64,000 nt of DNA, taken from assembly GCF_044324875.1 (NCBI RefSeq), contig NZ_CP172185.1; one strand, written 5' to 3'. The notes below the pieces were generated by a model. That model had not been told where the DNA came from. It did not search any database and worked only from the letters and a program-made list of their open reading frames with translations. Shown here piece by piece: positions 9,791 to 59,596 of the stretch. Each line of letters opens with the position of its first letter. The first letter of the stretch is position 1. Origin of the DNA: Escherichia coli (GTDB lineage Bacteria > Pseudomonadota > Gammaproteobacteria > Enterobacterales > Enterobacteriaceae). Both the position numbers and the translations under genes were made by a program.

Positions 9791-11470
9791 TTACAAAGAC
9801 AGAATCACTTTTGCACCCACCGCCAGCTGATAGAGGATGGTGGAAATACCACGGGTAACTTCAATATTTTTCGATTCATATTTCGGCAGAACCATAATCT
9901 CATCGCCCGGCTTGAGTGAATCCACATCTTCCGCGTTGACCGCAGCACCGTTCTGACGAATGACGATAATTCTGGCGTTACCCGATTTTTGCGTCAGGCC
10001 ACCACATTTCTCGATGTAATCCTCGGTGGTCATTCCCTTCTGCCAGCTCACCGCGTTCGGGAACAGCACCTCGCCGTGAACCATAACCAGCGACGTTTTC
10101 TCCGGAATATTGATGACGTCGCCATCTTCCAGCAGAACAGAATCAATATTGGACTCGTTGAGGATCACTTCACCTTTCGGAACCACGGTGCGCGCTTTCG
10201 CCACAAAGCGGCTGATCAGTTGCGCTTCCTGCATTCGCAGGCTGGCTTCTTCTTTGGTGGAGGACTGGGCGGAAAGAGATGCTTCCTCCAGCTTTTGCAG
10301 CGAGAGATTCAGCATCTCTTTCTGACGCTGGGCCACTGATGGGCGATAAAGCTGAACCGCGTTCATCTGCGACATGCTGTTCGGACGGACTTTTTCCAGA
10401 ACCGCACGCATGGTAGAGCCATAAGGCAGCACCATGGCGTGTTCACCGGAGTGCGCGCCTTCAACCCGCACCTGAATGGTGCCTGCATAGCGGTCAGTGC
10501 TGACGATTAAGGTATCGCCATTTTGCAACATACGGCCTGGCGCAGAACTGATCGGATAGTATTCGCTACGTTTTTGCAGTCCCTGTTTACGCATAATCGT
10601 AATGTGAGTCGCGCCAGGCTTAGGGCGCGCCCAGCTCAACGCTTCCGTTACGGGAATGCTGCTTTCGCGGAACTCAAAGTCGTAGCTGTTAAAGACATCG
10701 CCCTGAACGCTGAAAGTATGCTGACGCGGCCCGACGATGATGGTGTCACCATCGGCGAACTGCGAAAGCCCCAGTTTACCGTTCAGCAGGAAGTCGTACA
10801 GGTTGACGTTGGAGCGCACGCGGTTACCGCGCTTGACCACAATATCAACGTAACTTCCGCGCTCTGGATCAACGCCGCCAGCCTTGATCAGATAATTGAG
10901 TAACGAATCAGACGTCACACCGCCATACAGACCAGGATTACGCACAAATCCGGTCACGTACACTTTTACTGGCTGCGCCTGTAATAAGGAGGCGTAGACG
11001 TTGACGTTGGACTGGTACACTTCCTTCACTTTTGATGTAACCAGAGTGTTCAACTGACTATTGCTAACCCCGGCAACTTTCACCGGACCAACGTTTGGCA
11101 GAAAAATATTACCTTTGGGATCAATCTGTAATGCACCATCAAAGGTGAACGCACCCCACAAGCGAACCTGAATGCTATCACCCGGATTCAGAATATAGTC
11201 AGGGTTGAATCCTACCGTCGCACCGCTATCCGCGCTGGTGCCGTTGAAAAGTTGAGCACCAAACATGCGGCTCATGACCACCGGCGGTGCGGGCGGCGGG
11301 GTATTGTCGAAGCCGCTCATGTTTTGCGTATCCGACTGTTGCCCGTTCAGAATACCGGTAAGCGGCGCGGCTCCTGTCAGGTTTGGGTCAGCGTTAATAT
11401 CAATGGCCGCGCTGGCCTGCGCCGCGTGACAGGCGGCAATCAGTAAAATTGATTTAAATAATTTCATCAC
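9791..11470 (-). CDS. kpsD: KpsD, capsule polysaccharide export protein
   Basis: 559-aa ORF with N-terminal signal peptide MMKLFKSILLIAACHAAQASA; position between kpsU and kpsE. Confidence 0.9.
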   Translation of the reverse strand: MMKLFKSILLIAACHAAQASAAIDINADPNLTGAAPLTGILNGQQSDTQNMSGFDNTPPPAPPVVMSRMFGAQLFNGTSADSGATVGFNPDYILNPGDSIQVRLWGAFTFDGALQIDPKGNIFLPNVGPVKVAGVSNSQLNTLVTSKVKEVYQSNVNVYASLLQAQPVKVYVTGFVRNPGLYGGVTSDSLLNYLIKAGGVDPERGSYVDIVVKRGNRVRSNVNLYDFLLNGKLGLSQFADGDTIIVGPRQHTFSVQGDVFNSYDFEFRESSIPVTEALSWARPKPGATHITIMRKQGLQKRSEYYPISSAPGRMLQNGDTLIVSTDRYAGTIQVRVEGAHSGEHAMVLPYGSTMRAVLEKVRPNSMSQMNAVQLYRPSVAQRQKEMLNLSLQKLEEASLSAQSSTKEEASLRMQEAQLISRFVAKARTVVPKGEVILNESNIDSVLLEDGDVINIPEKTSLVMVHGEVLFPNAVSWQKGMTTEDYIEKCGGLTQKSGNARIIVIRQNGAAVNAEDVDSLKPGDEIMVLPKYESKNIEVTRGISTILYQLAVGAKVILSL

Positions 11471-11490
11471 AAACTCATTCAGCGACAGCG

Positions 11491-12639
11491 TTAGTCTCGG
11501 TGATCTTCAATAACAGCCAGCAACAGTTTCAGGGTGCCGAACAGCAGGCAGCACACCAGTAACCAGCAGGCGATCAAATAAGGGATATTTGGAAAAGACG
11601 ATTCCTGCGGCAACTGTGGCGAACTGATCACTGACAGCACCTTGAGCTTACGAGCCGCTTCTACACGGGTCTTTTCAATGGAGGTCAGGGTCAGTTTGTA
11701 CAGCTCGGTGTTGAACTCTACTTTTGATTTGATTTCTTCAAAATCCACCGCCATACGGTTTAGCTTGTCACCCTGCGGCGCTGTGATTTTGCTTTTTTCT
11801 TCGTCAATTTGTGCCTGCAATGACTGAATCGCATTACGCGCACTCACAACTTGCGGGGCGTCCTCACGCAGATACGTCAGCAAGTTCCGCAGGTCCGCTT
11901 CCATCTGGATCTTCTGGCCCATCAGCGTATTCACTAACGTGCTCGCCGCCTGTGCCTGTGCCTGTGGATCCAGAACGTTGTTGTTGTCTTGATAAGAGAG
12001 CAATTCCGCTTTGCTGGCGTCCAGACGCTGGCGTGCTTTTTCCATCTCCGTTTCTGCAAAGGCAAGCTGGTCACGCGCGATGCGATGTGACATCTCATTG
12101 ATAAAGCGCTCTGACTCTTTCAGCACGGTCTGGTTAAACTTAAGCGCAAACTCCGGGCTAAAGCCCTGCGTCTGAATATTCAGTAATCCGGTTTTATCGT
12201 CATACGAGACGTTGATACGGTCCTTGTAGTACTTCAGGAAGCCTTCTGCAGTTTCATCCTTGCTAAGATGATTAAGAAAATCGAGCCCGCTGTGGCTAAA
12301 CGCTTCACGAAAATTTAGTTGCTTATCCAGCGCCGCCAGCATATCCGGCGAGTTGATGTACTCTTTCAGATACAACGCATCTTCTGCGGAACTGGGGTTA
12401 GAGGCACCCAGAAGCAGACCAAAATTCAGGCTGCCGCTGTTTAAATCATCCGAGCGTTTAATGGCGACTTTCGACTCGCTCATATAGCGAGGCTGGCTGA
12501 AGATAGCCAGATAGATCAGCAGCACCGCCATCGGTGTCAGAATGATGATTTTCGCCAGGTGTTTTTGGATATCTGCCAGTGAGATGGCAGACAGACGAGC
12601 ACGCATCCAGGATACGGCAGACTTCACTTTTATCAACAT
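11491..12639 (-). CDS. kpsE: KpsE, capsule polysaccharide export inner-membrane protein
   Basis: 382-aa ORF with N-terminal and C-terminal hydrophobic segments and central coiled-coil region; region 1 position. Confidence 0.9.
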   Translation of the reverse strand: MLIKVKSAVSWMRARLSAISLADIQKHLAKIIILTPMAVLLIYLAIFSQPRYMSESKVAIKRSDDLNSGSLNFGLLLGASNPSSAEDALYLKEYINSPDMLAALDKQLNFREAFSHSGLDFLNHLSKDETAEGFLKYYKDRINVSYDDKTGLLNIQTQGFSPEFALKFNQTVLKESERFINEMSHRIARDQLAFAETEMEKARQRLDASKAELLSYQDNNNVLDPQAQAQAASTLVNTLMGQKIQMEADLRNLLTYLREDAPQVVSARNAIQSLQAQIDEEKSKITAPQGDKLNRMAVDFEEIKSKVEFNTELYKLTLTSIEKTRVEAARKLKVLSVISSPQLPQESSFPNIPYLIACWLLVCCLLFGTLKLLLAVIEDHRD

Positions 12640-36695: not shown

Positions 36696-37548
36696 AAAGG
36701 GAGATGAAAAAGGCAATAGCAGAACTGAGTGACAGTGAAACCATTCTGGCGTACAGGGTTGGATGGTGAAACTGATAAAAAAACCCCTCTGAAAATTCTG
36801 TCAGAGGGGTGTAGTCAATAAGGGTGTCATATTCAACATGAAGATGTCTTCTGGGAATGTTTACATAGCAAATGCTTTCACTCCGGTAATTAATTTCCGT
36901 GATTAACTGCTTTCGATCAATAAAGGAATTGCAAAAGTGTGATCTTGTTCACGACATTGTGGATGATAATATGCCTGATGTCTGAATCCGGAAACAGTGA
37001 TCTGGCGGTTTCATGTGAAGTTGACGGATAAAAAATCCGCACGACCAGACAGACGTGCGGTTTACGAAATTCGTAACAAGAGGCTTTTCTACGGATCACG
37101 TGGTGCGTGCCACGTGAAATTTTTGTAGCGCAAAATGTGTGATGTGTAAATACAAGGAAGGAAAAAAGTTAAATCGGTGGAAGTCCATGCCTGCCACATG
37201 TATGTCTGCATTCCTCGTTTTGAACAGAATTCTCACCAGACATCGTGAATTTCTCATTCAATCATCAGAGATATTACCCAGGATTTTTATTGTTTTGTGA
37301 TAGCAGTACTTTAAATGTTCAGATGCTAAAATAAGCGCGCTTATTATAATTATAGTTATGATGTTTTATCTTTATGTATTTTAATGATTTTCTCGTCATT
37401 GCTTTTCTGCTGCTTAAATTGAGGGCGCATATTATACACAATAATATTCCTGGCATTATTAAATTAATAAAAGAGGATTCTTATCACTGTATTTTTGCTC
37501 CGCACTACCGTTCTGGCTGGTGAAGTAATAATACAGGAGAATAACAGA

Positions 37549-39096
37549 ATGCTTAAAAGACGTGATGCTTTTTTAAAGAAAAGCGCGCTGGCAGTGAGTG
37601 TGGCCCTGCTGCTCTCATCTCAGGCTCAGGCTCAGGATATTTTATTCGGACCGATTCAACCTGGCGAAGATAATAGCTTTCTTGTTGGAGATTCAGTAGC
37701 TGGCCGTTCGTCTGGTGACATAAGAAATGTATGGTTGGTGGGTGATAATTCTTTTTTATTAGACTCAAACAGGACTGTGCTTTTGGGGAATAATTCTGGT
37801 GTTGTGAGCTCTCCGGGAAGTGTGAGTCTGGGGCATGATGCACTTATTGCTGACTCTGAATGGGGGACTGTTGCAGGAAAAGAAGCGTCACTTATTTCTT
37901 CTCGTCAGAGCTCGGCAATTGGTGCGTTTTCATCTGTGCAGGATTCTACCAGTTCTGTAGCTCTGGGCCATGGCTCACAGGTGTCGGGAGAAAATAACGT
38001 GGTATCTGTTGGTGCCGGGCCTGAGGGATATGGAGAGAGTGTCAAAGGAGCACCGGAAACCCGCCGGATTATAAATGTGTCTGATGGTATCAATAACACA
38101 GATGCAGCGACGGTAGGGCAACTGAATGAACGATTTGATGATGCACAGGTCTTTTTGTTGCAGACGAATGAAAGAATTGACGAGACAGATAAACGTCTTT
38201 CAACAGTTCATGCTGAACTCAGCAGGGATATTATTGCAGGCACATCGGCAGCGGTGACGTATACAGATGTAACAGCGCTTGCACTTCAGGATGAGATAAA
38301 GGATGGGACGAACAAAGTACGTGATGAGTTGAAATCACAGGGAGACAGTCTGCGTGGTGAGATAGGCGGTGTATACAGAGATGCCCGTGCTCATACTGAC
38401 AGTCAGGTCACAGCAGTACGTGATGAACTGAAGGCAGAGGGAGACAGTCTGCGCGGTGAGATAGGCGGTGTATACAGAGATGCCCGTGCTCATACTGACA
38501 GTCAGGTTACAGCAGTACGTGATGAACTCAGCAGGGATATTATTGCAGGCACATCGGCAGCGGTGGCGTATACGGATGCATCTTCTCTTGCTCTTCAGGA
38601 TGAAATAAAAGAAAAAGCGGATGAAACAGTTCAGGTTTCCCGGGCTTATACAGATAAAAGTGTACGGGATGCCCGTAAAGAAGCGAAAAGCCAGGCAGAA
38701 CATCTCAGCGATGTGCTTGTGAAGAACAGGGCGCAGACGGATGCAGCAATAGCCTCAAATACAGCAGCGATAAGGAATAACAGTCATCGTCTGGATTTGA
38801 CGGAAGCCTGGCAGAAGATGGCGACAGAGAGAATGAATAATATGCAGGAGCAGATTAAAGAGAACCGGAAGGAGTTAAGGGAGAGTGCAGCCCAGAGCGC
38901 GGCACTGGCAGGTCTTTTCCAGCCATACAGTGTTGGAAAATTTAACGCGACAGCAGCCGTTGGTGGTTACCGTGATGAGCAGGCCATTGCGGTGGGCGTG
39001 GGCTACCGTTTCACAGAGAATGTGGCAGGAAAAGTTGCAGTTGCTGCAGGTGGGTCATCCGCATCGTGGAATGCTGGTGTGAATTTTGAGTTCTGA
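37549..39096 (+). CDS. trimeric autotransporter adhesin (YadA-like C-terminal anchor) with repetitive coiled-coil stalk
   Basis: start placed at ATG 37549 (AGGAGA 9 nt upstream; signal peptide [28 protein letters not shown]); C-terminus ...GVGYRF...AGVNFEF. Confidence 0.85.
38317..38514 (+). repeat. 2 x 99-bp in-frame near-perfect tandem repeat within the adhesin stalk
   Basis: units at 38317-38415 and 38416-38514 differ at a few positions; flanked by a ~95-bp dispersed repeat pair at ~38211-38306 and ~38521-38615. Confidence 0.85.
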
Positions 39097-50455: not shown

Positions 50456-51535
50456 TTACTGCATCATGACCTCACGAACGAAATCTTTTTTGAGCTGTGT
50501 ACTGTACGCTTTGCCATAAAACTCCACCGTGGGCTCCGGGATCTCATTCAGATCCGGACGGAGCTGTTTGTTCATCGGCGTGGAGCCGAAGACTTTACTC
50601 AGTGCATGTTGCGTTTCAGGCTGAATCAGCCAGTTGAGGAATAAGCGTGATGCCGCCGGATGTGGGCTGTTGGCGGCAATGGCAGCGATGTTACCGCCGC
50701 CAGGCATGCCAAACTCCGGTACGTAAAATTTCAGCCGCGAATTGATAGCCCCGGTTTTTTGTAGTCCGACAAGATGATCTTCCCAGGATGGTGTCAGCAT
50801 CAGCTCGCCGTCATTCAGGCGTGTCAGACTATCAGCACCGGAGGCCGTGCGGGTAATTTTGTCCTTATTAGCGGCAAACCACTGCCAGCCTTTCTGCCAG
50901 TTTTTCACCACTGCCGGGTCAACGCTCTCCGCTTCGCTGTTAAACGTGTCGCCCTGAGTAGTGACGATGCGCTGGATAAAGGCTTCCCCAGCGCCGCCGT
51001 TGTTCGGGTCGTTATAGCCGAACTTTTTCGGGTTGGCGTCGATAAAGCTCTGCAACTGCTCCAGCGTTTGTGGCAGCGCCCGGTCACCCATCTGCTGCGG
51101 GTCGTAAGCAAATCCGGTCTGGTTGCCCCAGAACGCCACGGCATAACCCTGGGTGTCAACGTTCTGAATCTGGTGAATGGCGTCGCCATAGCCCGGCAAA
51201 TCGTCCACCTTCGCCAGCGCTTTCGCTCCCATTGCCACTGGCAGTTGCGCAACAGACAAGGCGATAACATCTATTTTACCTTTTTTTTTCCCCGCTTCTG
51301 CCAGCAACTTGTTCACGTTTCCGTCGATATTCCCTTCCGGGATGCGCACCTTAACACCGTACTGCTGCTCAAAATCCTTCACAAAGCTGCGCCACTGCGG
51401 CTGTAAGTACCAGACGTTAAAGGTCACGCTGCCCTCTTTTTTCGCTTGGGCAATCAGGTCGGGGCTATCCGCCGCCGTTGCCAGCGAGCTGCACAGCAGG
51501 CCGCCCGCCAGAATCATCACTGTTTTTTTCATCAC
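50456..51535 (-). CDS. ABC transporter periplasmic substrate-binding protein
   Basis: 359-aa ORF with signal peptide; last gene of a four-gene ABC operon. Confidence 0.8.
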   Translation of the reverse strand: MMKKTVMILAGGLLCSSLATAADSPDLIAQAKKEGSVTFNVWYLQPQWRSFVKDFEQQYGVKVRIPEGNIDGNVNKLLAEAGKKKGKIDVIALSVAQLPVAMGAKALAKVDDLPGYGDAIHQIQNVDTQGYAVAFWGNQTGFAYDPQQMGDRALPQTLEQLQSFIDANPKKFGYNDPNNGGAGEAFIQRIVTTQGDTFNSEAESVDPAVVKNWQKGWQWFAANKDKITRTASGADSLTRLNDGELMLTPSWEDHLVGLQKTGAINSRLKFYVPEFGMPGGGNIAAIAANSPHPAASRLFLNWLIQPETQHALSKVFGSTPMNKQLRPDLNEIPEPTVEFYGKAYSTQLKKDFVREVMMQ

Positions 51536-51553: not shown

Positions 51554-52390
51554 TCAGGCTTTTCCCGTGGATTGCGACAGATAGTTCCCCTTCAGCAACT
51601 TCTCAATGATGACCATCAGGATGACATTGGGGATCACCAGAATCATCGACACCACCGCCGCATCCGGGCGGACGAAGGAGTAGCCAAGGAAAGAGTAAAG
51701 AATGGTCGGAACGGTGATAAAGTCCGGCGCGCCCAGCACGTATGAGATGCTGAACTCTTCCAGGCTTCGCACCAGACAAAAAATCAGCGCCGCCAGGAAG
51801 CTCGGTTTCAGCAGCGGCAGATAGGCATTGCAGAAGGTGTCCCACGCGCCGGAGCCCAGGTCGCGGCTGGCGTCGATCAGATCCTGCGGCACCGACTTAA
51901 ACCCCGCAGACATAATGCGGATCGAATAGGGCAGCGTCAGTACCGTATGGCCGATAACAATGCTGATAAACGCGTTGTCGATATTGAGGTTGATCAGCAT
52001 GGCGCTGAAAAAAATCCCGATCAGCATCCCCGGCATCACCAGCGGGATCAGCGTCAGCATCTCCGCCACCGCCTTACCGCGAAAGGTCATGCGCCCGAAG
52101 GCATACGCGGTGGGTAGCGACAGCAGCAGGCTGGCGACCGCTACCGCAGGCGCAATGGTGTAGCTGTTGAACAGCGCCTCGGAAAGCGAAGTCTTTTCCC
52201 ATACCAGCAGCCAGCGGCTGAACGACAGCACGGGCGGGAAGATATCCGGGTAGCTCCACGGATGGGCCGGGTCAACCAGCGACCAGAGGATCGCCATGCC
52301 GAACGGCATGCCCAGCCAGATCAGATTAGCGACCACGAAGAAGATCAGCGAAATCGTCACCACCCGGCAACCGTTGGCAGTGTGGCTCAT
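51554..52390 (-). CDS. ABC transporter permease (second); start set at the downstream ATG
   Basis: the ORF-track start 52438 would add 16 residues (MSHTDYPVRHPQRRGQ) encoded by one copy of a 48-bp tandem duplication. Confidence 0.75.
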   Translation of the reverse strand: MSHTANGCRVVTISLIFFVVANLIWLGMPFGMAILWSLVDPAHPWSYPDIFPPVLSFSRWLLVWEKTSLSEALFNSYTIAPAVAVASLLLSLPTAYAFGRMTFRGKAVAEMLTLIPLVMPGMLIGIFFSAMLINLNIDNAFISIVIGHTVLTLPYSIRIMSAGFKSVPQDLIDASRDLGSGAWDTFCNAYLPLLKPSFLAALIFCLVRSLEEFSISYVLGAPDFITVPTILYSFLGYSFVRPDAAVVSMILVIPNVILMVIIEKLLKGNYLSQSTGKA

Positions 52391-52476
52391 TTGACCTCTC
52401 CTTTGCGGGTGGCGAACGGGGTAATCAGTGTGGCTCATTTGACCTCTCCTTTGCGGGTGGCGAACGGGGTAATCAG
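52381..52476. repeat. perfect 2 x 48-bp tandem duplication spanning the permease1 stop / permease2 start junction
   Basis: TGTGGCTCATTTGACCTCTCCTTTGCGGGTGGCGAACGGGGTAATCAG occurs twice back to back; contains RBS, ATGA stop/start overlap and first codons. Confidence 0.9.
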
Positions 52477-53301
52477 TGTGGCAATCAGCAACGTGCAGAT
52501 GGCCGCCGTGACCATAATGATCACCGCAATCACCGCCGCGTTATTCCACTCGCCGTACTCCATGGCGGTGGCCTGCATCAGCCGCGCCAGCGAGTAGGTG
52601 TTGCGTGGCCCGGCCACCGAGAAGAAGGCGAAGTCGCCCAGCGCGCCGATAAATACCAGAATCAGCGTCACCTGCACGGCGGGCAGCGTCAGCGGCACCA
52701 CCACGCCGGTAAAACTGCGCCAGCGGCTGGCACCGAGATTGCTGGCGGCGTCCAGCACGTCGTTACGGATGGCGTTGACTGCGCCGCCGACGAGGATCAG
52801 GGCGAAGGGCAGGTTTTTCCAGATTTGCAGGATAACCACGCCCCAGCCGAAGTCATCGTTCTGCATCCGCAGCGGCTCGCTGATAATCCCCAGCGCCAGC
52901 AGCAGTTCGTTGATAATGCCGTGATAAGCGACGATATTGACGAACAGAAACGCCGCCACCAGACCGGGGATAAACATCGGCGCACGCAGCACCGCGATAA
53001 TGCCCTCTTTATAGGCCATCGGTTTACGCAGCCACAGCGCCAGCGGATAGGCGAAAATCACCGAGCCGAACGACCCCAGCAGTGACACTTTCACTGAGTA
53101 GAACAGGGCGCTTTGCAACACTTCGTCCTGCAACATATTGCGCCAGTATTCCAGCGAGAAATTGCTGTCGCCTTCGATGTTGAACCAGCCCAGGCTCTGG
53201 ACGATCACCACATAAAACGTCGATCCCATCAGTAGTAGGATCGTGCCCAGCCCGCTGAGCATCAGCAGCCAGGCGACCGCATCATTGCGCCAGTTTTTCA
53301 T
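52435..53301 (-). CDS. ABC transporter permease (first)
   Basis: 288-aa polytopic ORF with permease EAA-like loop region. Confidence 0.85.
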   Translation of the reverse strand: MKNWRNDAVAWLLMLSGLGTILLLMGSTFYVVIVQSLGWFNIEGDSNFSLEYWRNMLQDEVLQSALFYSVKVSLLGSFGSVIFAYPLALWLRKPMAYKEGIIAVLRAPMFIPGLVAAFLFVNIVAYHGIINELLLALGIISEPLRMQNDDFGWGVVILQIWKNLPFALILVGGAVNAIRNDVLDAASNLGASRWRSFTGVVVPLTLPAVQVTLILVFIGALGDFAFFSVAGPRNTYSLARLMQATAMEYGEWNNAAVIAVIIMVTAAICTLLIATLITPFATRKGEVK

Positions 53302-54365
53302 GATACCGGCTCCAGAAAATGGATGGCGTTTTCCGCCAGACGGAAGCAGGCACTCTCGCCGGGGGCGACGGGCGGCTTTTTAATTAGATGTAAGCGGACC
53401 GATAACCCGCTGTCGTTGTGGCCCCAGGCTTCGGTGAGGTTGCCCATAAAGGCCATTTTGTCGAGCGTCAGGGAGAAGTGGTTGTTGCCTGCCTGAGGCT
53501 GGCTGACATACTGCGCATCTTCCGGTCGCCAGCAGATATAGCAGTGCTCTGTGCGTGGCGGCTGTACGGAATGCACATAAAACTCGCCGAGGGCACAGCG
53601 TACCCGGTAATAGCCCGGCTGCTCTGAGGGCGTGACCTGCGCGGTGTCGATATTGGCCGCGCCGATAAAGTCGGCCACAAAGCGGTTGGCCGGACGGTAG
53701 TAAATCTCTTCCGGTTTGCCTATTTGCTCAACATTACCGGCGTTCAGCACCACAATTTTATCCGACATCGCCAGCGCTTCCGCCTGGTCGTGTGTGACGT
53801 AGATCGAGGTGAGCTGATACTGCCGCTGGAGTTCCTTGATTTCAAAACGCACGCTTTCGCGCAGCTTGGCATCAAGGTTGGAGAGCGGTTCGTCGAACAG
53901 GATCACGTCCGGGCGGGTGATCATCGCCCGCGCCAGCGCCACGCGCTGCTGCTGGCCGCCGGAGAGCTGGGCGGGCATTTTCAGGCGCTGGCTCTCCAGC
54001 CCCACCTGCTTCAGCGCCTCCGCCAGCCGGGCCTGCTGTTCACTGATAGCGACTTTTTTCTGCTTCAGGCCGAAGCAGATGTTGTGTGCCACGTTGAGGT
54101 GCGGAAACAGCGCATAGGACTGGAAACACATGGCGGTATTGCGCTTTTCTGGCGGCAGGGCGTTGACCGTTTTATCGCCAATCAGAATGCGTCCGCTGTC
54201 CGGCTGGTGAAAACCGCCGATCATTTTCAGCAGGGTGGTTTTACCGCAGCCGCTCGGCCCAAGCAGGGTCACGAACTCCCCCTCTTCGGCGCAGAACGAG
54301 ATTTCCCTGGCGGCATAGAATTCGCCGAAGGTTTTGGTCACCTGTTCCAGAACCAGTTTTGACAT
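53298..54365 (-). CDS. ABC transporter ATP-binding protein (PotA/MalK-like)
   Basis: Walker [10 protein letters not shown], signature [14 protein letters not shown], Walker [12 protein letters not shown]. Confidence 0.9.
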
Positions 54366-58036: not shown

Positions 58037-59596
58037 ATGATAACAAAAAGAGAAAGACGTTTCCTGAGAACAGTAGAATGGCTTGGCAATGCACTTCCTC
58101 ATCCCGTCATCCTGTTCATAATATTAACAATTTCCTTAATTGTAGTTTCGATGATTGGACAATATTTTAATATTAGCGCCCCAGACCCAAGACCACCTGG
58201 AGCTAAAGGCCGGAATGATGATGGTATTATTTATATTGTAAGTTTACTGGATGCAGATGGAGTTCGTAAAATTCTTTCGAATCTGGTTACTAATTTTACG
58301 GGATTTGCACCACTGGGCACTGTTCTGGTTTCTCTTCTTGGTGTTGGTATTGCAGAACGGTCCGGGTTAATTTCAGCAACCCTTCGTCTTATTGTGACAA
58401 AAGCCCCTGCAAAAGTAACAACTATAGCTGTTGTCTTTGCCGGTATCATGTCCAACATGGCTTCAGAACTTGGCTATGTCGTTTTAATACCACTTTCGGC
58501 AATACTTTTTCATTCTCTGGGAAGACATCCCTTGGCCGGGCTTGCTGCTGCTTTTGCGGGAGTCTCGGGTGGCTATTCAGCAAATTTAGTATTAGGTACA
58601 ATCGATCCGCTCTTGTCAGGAATCACCCAGCAAGCAGCGCAAATTGTATCATCTGATTATATTGTAGGGGCTGAATCCAACTGGTATTTTATGTTTGTCA
58701 GTACATTTTTTATAACACTCATGGGGTACCTGATAACAGAAAAAATAGTTGAACCACAGTTAGGGAAATACAAGGGTGGAGGGTTCAATCAGGATGAACA
58801 GTCAATTCGTAATTCATCTGATGTTACAGCAGTTGAGAAAAAAGCGTTAATGCTGTCCTTTTTATCTGTACTTCTACTATCTGTTATTGTTGCCATTCTG
58901 GTTATTCCTGAAGATGGAATCTTACGTAATCAACAAACAGGATTAATCAGCAATTCTCCATTTCTTAAATCAATAGTGGCTTTCATTTTCATATTCTTTT
59001 CATTAGCTGGTGTAGTATATGGATATACAGCGGGAACAATAAAAAATAGCAAAGATATTGTTGATGCCATGACTCATTCAATGAGTACATTAGGACTTTA
59101 TCTGGTCATTATATTTTTTGCCTCTCAGTTTGTAGCTTTGTTTAGCTGGACAAATATTGGTCAGGTTATTGCGGTTAAAGGCGGGAGTTTTCTGAATAGT
59201 CTTGATTTGCCAGATTCCGTAATATTTATTGGATTTATATTGATTTGTGCTGTCATTAATTTAATGATTGGGTCCGCATCTGCTCAATGGGCAGTAACAG
59301 CACCAATTTTTGTTCCTATGTTAATGATGGCAGGATATGCCCCTGAAGTAATACAGGCTGCTTATAGAATTGGAGATTCAGTAACAAACATTATTACTCC
59401 AATGATGAGTTATTTTGGGCTTGTTATGGCTATTGTACTTAAATACAAAAAGGATGCCGGTGTTGGGACTTTGATATCAATGATGCTTCCATACTCCATA
59501 GTTTTCCTCGTCGGGTGGTCTGTATTCTTTGTTATATGGGTCTTTGTACTGAACTTACCCGTTGGCCCCGGGGCATCGACCTATTATCTCCCATAA
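58037..59596 (+). CDS. AbgT-family transporter
   Basis: 519-aa AT-rich polytopic ORF; N-terminus RFLRTVEWLGNALPHPVILFIIL typical of AbgT family. Confidence 0.85.
   Translation: MITKRERRFLRTVEWLGNALPHPVILFIILTISLIVVSMIGQYFNISAPDPRPPGAKGRNDDGIIYIVSLLDADGVRKILSNLVTNFTGFAPLGTVLVSLLGVGIAERSGLISATLRLIVTKAPAKVTTIAVVFAGIMSNMASELGYVVLIPLSAILFHSLGRHPLAGLAAAFAGVSGGYSANLVLGTIDPLLSGITQQAAQIVSSDYIVGAESNWYFMFVSTFFITLMGYLITEKIVEPQLGKYKGGGFNQDEQSIRNSSDVTAVEKKALMLSFLSVLLLSVIVAILVIPEDGILRNQQTGLISNSPFLKSIVAFIFIFFSLAGVVYGYTAGTIKNSKDIVDAMTHSMSTLGLYLVIIFFASQFVALFSWTNIGQVIAVKGGSFLNSLDLPDSVIFIGFILICAVINLMIGSASAQWAVTAPIFVPMLMMAGYAPEVIQAAYRIGDSVTNIITPMMSYFGLVMAIVLKYKKDAGVGTLISMMLPYSIVFLVGWSVFFVIWVFVLNLPVGPGASTYYLP

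Follow-up and report, generated by a model that had tools for sequence, protein, structure and literature searches.

A 48-bp in-frame tandem duplication at the permease junction of an accessory ABC-importer operon in Escherichia coli, a probable microhomology-mediated polymorphism

The importer operon and its surroundings

A four-gene ABC transporter operon was found on the minus strand of the window, i.e. the whole stretch of 64,000 nucleotides of E. coli DNA that was analysed. The genes of the operon are listed below in the order of transcription.

53298 to 54365, minus strand: ATP-binding protein of the ABC transporter, 355 aa, first gene of the operon
52435 to 53301, minus strand: permease 1, 288 aa, BPD_transp_1 domain, PotB-like; its TGA stop is at 52435 to 52437
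51554 to 52438 (or 51554 to 52390), minus strand: permease 2, BPD_transp_1 domain, PotC-like; 294 aa from the first possible start codon (ATG#1) or 278 aa from the second (ATG#2)
50456 to 51532, minus strand: periplasmic solute-binding protein, 358 aa, last gene of the operon

The two membrane subunits each contain a BPD_transp_1 domain, and their genes share the operon with those of an ABC ATPase and of a solute-binding protein; this places the system among the type I importers with a PotBC-like permease pair (Pfam, NCBIfam). The best PDB relative of permease 2 was PotC (8y5f_C) from the type I importer PotABCD, and the ATPase was found to resemble PhnT, UgpC and PotA (NCBIfam). The scores fell below the NCBIfam equivalog cut-offs for PotABCD orthology, with 79.8 bits for PotB (cut-off 348), 81.5 bits for PotC (cut-off 326) and 329 bits for PotA (cut-off 482), and there were no NCBIfam matches to PotD in the operon. 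Assignment of a substrate was rejected, as every NCBIfam score was far below the equivalog cut-offs. The neighbours of the operon are sodC and the genes for a glycerophosphodiester phosphodiesterase and a ROK regulator; the latter two give no more than a hint of a substrate of the phosphodiester or sugar type. A YebF-family gene located downstream of the ROK regulator (approximately 56.6-57.0 kb; 11289 to 11588 in locus L001) has an internal stop and is annotated as a pseudogene in every complete genome that was inspected.

The operon is accessory. Part of it was present in 34 of 5,426 complete genomes and the junction between the two permease genes in 23, mostly from chickens. Two main haplotypes of the four genes were observed, separated by 22 SNPs and 7 amino-acid differences, and the proportion of roughly 15 synonymous to 7 non-synonymous changes indicates past purifying selection. 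In Salmonella enterica (L030 and L031) the operon has an identical single-copy junction and adjoins a TraI_2 relaxase and an integrase, and for Klebsiella pneumoniae, too, there is an annotation of the common permease 2 sequence. Among Enterobacteriaceae the operon is mobile by horizontal transfer. Deletions of 1 nt were seen in several single-copy strains. Two genomes (L007 and L010) have a binding protein cut to 266 aa by a deletion equivalent to window position ~50755, and in another (L009) the ATPase is cut to 206 aa. These inactivating deletions suggest that the operon is decaying in some lineages.

No complete E. coli genome was colinear with the window. When compared with E. coli strain 135 no mapping was obtained upstream of ~48.7 kb, where the island structure is different. 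Capsule genes of the kps type and remnants of a CP4-like island are found in the left part of the window (within positions 1 to 48700). The stretch from ~40 to 48.7 kb, with a TRAP transporter and an intact IS3, matches strain ECCNB12-2 and not strain 135, while the haplotype of the operon matches strain 135; the island is thus recombinant. A 533-aa ORF at 37495 to 39096, which corresponds to an adhesin with a YadA C-terminal domain in strain 135, contains a tandem repeat of its own (38316 to 38528; 99 bp, 2.2 copies, 93% identity). The operon also adjoins the genes for an AbgT-family transporter (58037 to 59596) and a 1274-aa autotransporter peptidase of the S6 family (SPATE-type; 59908 to 63732), and this region looks like a pathogenicity-island mosaic.

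Structure and coding consequences of the duplicated junction

Tandem Repeats Finder (TRF) reported a perfect tandem repeat at 52378 to 52482 with a period of 48, 2.2 copies (2.19), 100% matches, no indels and a score of 210. The raw sequence agreed with this call, showing 48-bp units placed head-to-tail with no filler bases between them. The total repeated stretch of 105 bp consists of two 48-bp units and an extra copy of a 9-bp arm, which reads CAGTGTGGC on the plus strand and GCCACACTG on the gene strand. An earlier note on this DNA had described a 96-bp repeat at 52381 to 52476, and both TRF and the raw sequence confirm this as a valid phase within the 105-bp repeat. A chance match was ruled out, as 57 consecutive positions match at a single offset (P ~1e-33 per position). 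The features of the junction are as follows.

52378 to 52482, no strand: perfect tandem repeat, two full units and a third 9-bp arm (TRF and sequence)
52474 to 52482, minus strand: microhomology arm 1, Ala-Thr-Leu codons near the C-terminus of permease 1
52443 to 52449, minus strand: Shine-Dalgarno (SD) copy 1, GGAGAGG, 4 nt upstream of ATG#1
52436 to 52438, minus strand: ATG#1, overlapping the permease 1 stop (ATGA), start of the 294-aa extended permease 2
52426 to 52434, minus strand: microhomology arm 2, the novel junction made by the duplication (sequence comparison)
52395 to 52401, minus strand: SD copy 2, GGAGAGG
52388 to 52390, minus strand: ATG#2, from which the native 278-aa permease 2 starts; 44 nt separate it from the permease 1 stop upstream
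52378 to 52386, minus strand: microhomology arm 3, GCCACACTG, codons 2-4 (Ser-His-Thr) of native permease 2

Three arms are present in the two-copy allele, and the sequence of the novel junction is GGTCAAATGAGCCACACTGATTACCCCGTTC. Read on the gene strand, the unit contains the last 13 codons of permease 1 followed by TGA, the SD sequence GGAGAGG and the ATG-AGC-CAC-ACT of permease 2. The parts that are duplicated were correctly described earlier as the end of permease 1, its stop, the ribosome binding site and the start of permease 2. The unit of 48 nt equals 16 codons and is in frame.

Permease 1 ends at the first TGA and its sequence is unaltered by the duplication. Both permeases were full length in every locus compared, in one-copy and two-copy alleles alike. 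Two alternative in-frame starts of permease 2 are present, as proposed, and the predicted 16-residue extension MSHTDYPVRHPQRRGQ was reproduced exactly by translation. The spacer between the permease 1 stop and the second ATG, previously given as 45 nt, is 44 nt long (52391 to 52434; PGAP coordinates). The start codon assigned to such alleles depends on the annotation pipeline: ATG#2 (278 aa) was chosen by PGAP in all three complete two-copy genomes, and ATG#1 (294 aa) was chosen by other gene callers on 43 contigs. Between -44 and +13, counted from the ATG, the two SD-ATG modules do not differ. Folding predictions for the mRNA gave a probability of being unpaired of 0.75-0.82 for ATG#2, on a par with the native start (0.74-0.91), and a somewhat lower one for ATG#1 (0.45-0.56). 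No promoter-like or terminator-like site was found to be created or destroyed in a scan of 52000 to 52900, and an Rfam scan of 50-55 kb for known RNA elements gave just one sub-threshold chance match.

The extension MSHTDYPVRHPQRRGQ contains three Arg, two His and one Asp and is net-positive. Six-helix permeases of type I importers, such as PotC, have cytoplasmic N-termini. Given the homology of permease 2 to PotC, the extension is predicted to be cytoplasmic and should be tolerated. ATG#1 still overlaps the stop and would be reachable by ribosomes terminating on permease 1, and ATG#2, with an identical SD and context, would give the native 278-aa permease 2. Judged from the sequences, it is most likely that both forms of permease 2 are made, that the transporter still works and that the allele is nearly neutral.

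Origin, distribution and copy-number change

The single-copy junctions of E. coli and Salmonella read ATT-GCCACACTG-(39 nt)-GCCACACTG-CCAACGG, with the two arms exactly 48 nt apart. In this single-copy progenitor the first arm falls within the final codons of permease 1, and the second lies in codons 2-4 of permease 2. Klebsiella has a different upstream arm (GCCCTGCTT), and one copy only was seen there. A head-to-tail arrangement without filler, and a single-copy progenitor in which identical short direct repeats bound the unit, are the marks of microhomology-mediated tandem duplications (MTDs), and both were found here. It is quite probable that the repeat is a microhomology-mediated (slipped-strand) tandem duplication, and that it segregates naturally within this accessory ABC-importer operon, in E. 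coli mostly associated with poultry. As the anatomy of the junction suggests, replication misalignment between the two 9-bp GCCACACTG arms would have duplicated the 48 nt. As a class, MTDs are ascribed to slippage during replication or to misprocessed Okazaki fragments. Substrates of this kind are ordinary, since 52 loci with direct repeats of at least 9 nt, spaced 10-100 nt, were counted in the ancestralised window. Because the unit, 16 codons long, brings along the permease 1 stop as well as the SD and ATG of permease 2, both genes survive the duplication. A duplication of this junction is probably seen in nature since duplicating it does no harm.

Two copies were present in three of the 23 complete E. 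coli genomes with the junction, namely strain 135 (Guangdong), ECCNB12-2 (Zhejiang) and Br_112_kylling (Brazil), and one copy in the remaining 20. Exact-protein look-ups gave about 20 further isolate assemblies with two copies; this sampling of loci is non-random and frequencies are not estimable from it. A metagenome scan with a junction pattern matching any copy number gave two contigs only, both single copy. The two-copy loci were distributed over at least five flanking haplotypes (A to E, over 4.8 kb) from Asia and South America, and haplotypes C and E are recombinant upstream with the common single-copy haplotype. Over 8.4 kb, 19 sites distinguish ECCNB12-2 from the window, and their left flanks are not the same. 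An allele found on at least five flanking haplotypes and two continents does not fit the very recent event that had been read from the perfect identity of the copies. With a divergence of the locus of at most 0.3%, ~0.2 differences are expected in 96 bp, and the identity therefore says little about age.

All isolate two-copy alleles share one core haplotype and a derived SNP located 9 nt from the repeat, which changes residue 8 of permease 2 from R8 to C8 (outgroups have R8). The C8 allele was also found with one copy and the exact wild-type junction, on the same haplotypes as the two-copy alleles. The pairs compared are given below.

Haplotype A, one-copy L017 and two-copy L011: 0 SNPs over 4.8 kb
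Haplotype B, one-copy L048 and two-copy L046: 5 SNPs over 20.8 kb
Haplotype C, one-copy L053 and two-copy L054: 2 SNPs over 12.4 kb
One-copy L051 and two-copy L050: 9 SNPs over 13.6 kb

A further one-copy locus, L015, was one SNP from haplotype A. Assemblies of one-copy strains that share a haplotype with two-copy loci include GCA_027278105.1, GCA_964257775.1, GCA_052421175.1 and GCA_974490495.1. As one-copy and two-copy alleles occur on matching backgrounds in at least three haplotype groups, the copy number must have changed repeatedly. The proposal that the unit is prone to slipped-strand change is borne out by these identical or near-identical backgrounds (0-9 SNPs over 5-21 kb). Fitch parsimony on a neighbour-joining (NJ) tree gave seven changes, a figure judged to be inflated by zero-length branches, and at least four events is the conservative estimate. 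On the best reading of the pattern, a single gain would have preceded at least three precise losses. This direction is favoured because 57 nt of perfect homology allow a collapse much more readily than 9 nt allow a new duplication, and because the reversion of MTDs in fission yeast was ~100 times as frequent as their formation (Dan et al. 2021, PMC8639346). With so long a stretch of perfect tandem homology the duplication would be unstable, and its collapse would restore the exact wild-type junction. The sequences do not prove this direction of change against repeated gain or transfer by recombination. A maximum of two units was observed in ~50 loci, and an exact look-up of the 310-aa protein form expected of a three-copy allele found nothing. 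The two-copy state is the majority among the sampled C8-allele loci, for which drift, hitch-hiking or weak positive selection could equally account.

The earlier note had regarded the unit as a natural on/off or dosage switch. A dosage effect of the second copy is possible, though nothing observed points to one; the 48-bp duplication cannot be an on/off switch, as the change is one of 16 codons that leaves both permease ORFs intact and the native SD-ATG of permease 2 in place in both states. A selected, reversible regulatory device, a dosage or coupling switch of the contingency type in which one versus two SD-ATG modules alter the amount or the form of permease 2 and slipped-strand loss resets the system, would be compatible with the recurrent flips in copy number on near-identical backgrounds and with the predominance of the two-copy state among the sampled C8-allele loci, where it is spread over several haplotypes; a possible adaptive value of some fixed MTDs has also been argued for (Wei et al. 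2026 preprint, bioRxiv 10.64898/2026.02.28.708716). Such a device is nevertheless unlikely. Besides the in-frame nature of the change and the preserved ORFs and native start, the limitation to one or two copies, with no three-copy form found, and the lack of any newly created promoter-like or terminator-like site speak against it. Frameshift decay of the operon in several strains suggests weak selection, and with ~50 comparable microhomology pairs in the window the survival of this duplication is explained by its harmlessness.

A different view of the copy-number pattern is that the junction is a hotspot with many independent gains, in which case the one-copy C8 alleles would be ancestral in each haplotype and not revertants. 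The presence of both forms in at least three haplotypes fits with this, as do two-copy forms on ancestral R8 alleles (294 aa) in the protein collection. Those R8 forms were found only on pooled faecal metagenome scaffolds with mosaic SNPs, which may be chimeric, whereas every isolate two-copy allele carries the derived C8 SNP and one core haplotype. Loss from 57 nt of homology is, moreover, mechanistically far commoner than gain from 9 nt (PMC8639346), and many independent gains must be regarded as rather improbable. The scaffolds concerned (L033-L037, from the MUNK18 faecal metagenome) have two-copy junctions along with the ancestral R8 SNP, and their flanking SNPs are mosaic; they are either chimeric assemblies or genuine independent gains or recombinants. 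An independent gain on the R8 allele was not accepted as proven, its sole source being these mosaic pooled metagenome scaffolds.

As a side finding outside the duplication, a homopolymer tract was observed in the gene for the solute-binding protein.

51281 to 51289, minus strand: A9 homopolymer within the solute-binding protein gene

The tract is A9 on the haplotypes that bear the duplication and A7GG on the common haplotype. Variants of the A9 tract were found in five assemblies, with A10 in L014, A7 in L015, A8 in L019/L054 and L024, and loss of a flanking G in L020. Each variant shifts the frame and truncates the binding protein at 84-86 aa. Either slippage has really shifted the frame in these assemblies or the variants are errors in sequencing a homopolymer; if the frameshifts are real, the A9 tract and not the 48-bp repeat would be the on/off-capable element of the operon. 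It is very improbable that the 48-bp unit is a selected, reversible translational module by which permease 2 alternates between its native form and an extended form coupled to the stop, and that this module and the A9 tract on the same haplotype give poultry-associated E. coli a slippage-driven control, at two levels, of an accessory nutrient importer.

That the second copy is an assembly artefact absent from the cell, which the perfect identity of the copies would equally lead one to expect, can be dismissed, as the two-copy allele is found in three independently sequenced complete genomes (two countries) and ~20 independent assemblies from different projects with consistent linked SNPs, and as a repeated stretch of 57 nt, shorter than standard reads and final assembler k-mers, should be resolvable.

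Comparison with known systems

Taken as a microhomology-mediated tandem duplication, the repeat belongs to a well-known type of mutation and is an ordinary case of it. Mildly unusual are its position across a translationally coupled gene junction, with both gene ends rebuilt, and the repeated natural changes between one and two copies. A literature search combining tandem duplication, translational coupling and ABC transporters found nothing relevant. The effect on the biology of the transporter is expected to be small. The locus provides a clean natural example of an in-frame, junction-spanning duplication that persists in a bacterial population and whose copy number changes between one and two where the background is otherwise identical, and it illustrates that perfect identity of repeats is not to be taken as a sign of an artefact or a very recent event. 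If the two starts alter the stoichiometry of the permeases, the junction would offer a simple model for the evolution of translational coupling.

Tandem duplications are common in E. coli genomes, where ~13,000 variable loci have been reported, about half of them with arms of more than 3 bp (Wei et al. 2026 preprint). The repeat resembles the MTDs described in that study and in fission yeast (PMC8639346; bioRxiv 10.64898/2026.02.28.708716) in its 48-bp segment, its identical, GC-rich 9-bp arms, its head-to-tail arrangement and the precise wild-type allele present in relatives. As with MTDs, the duplication is polymorphic within the species and apparently reversible. The published functional MTDs shift the reading frame and inactivate genes, whereas this one is in frame, spans a gene junction and disrupts neither gene.

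A likeness is also seen to the phase-variable contingency loci of Neisseria, Haemophilus and Campylobacter, in which changes in simple-sequence repeats are likewise repeat-mediated, heritable, reversible and due to strand slippage. Contingency loci have many short units that shift the frame or the promoter spacing and act as on/off switches. The junction has one or two units of 48 nt that are always in frame. Neither a shift in frame or promoter spacing (16 codons, intact ORFs, no promoter-like site) nor a multi-unit range (just one or two copies in ~50 loci) was found.

The junction is also comparable to the translationally coupled ATGA overlaps found in ABC importer operons, such as those of potB-potC type permease pairs. 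The ancestral junction has the 4-nt ATGA with the SD sequence inside the upstream gene, and the overlap is kept by ATG#1 in the two-copy allele. Unlike the usual ATGA overlaps, a second, identical SD-ATG is located 48 nt downstream in the same frame, giving permease 2 two possible N-termini.
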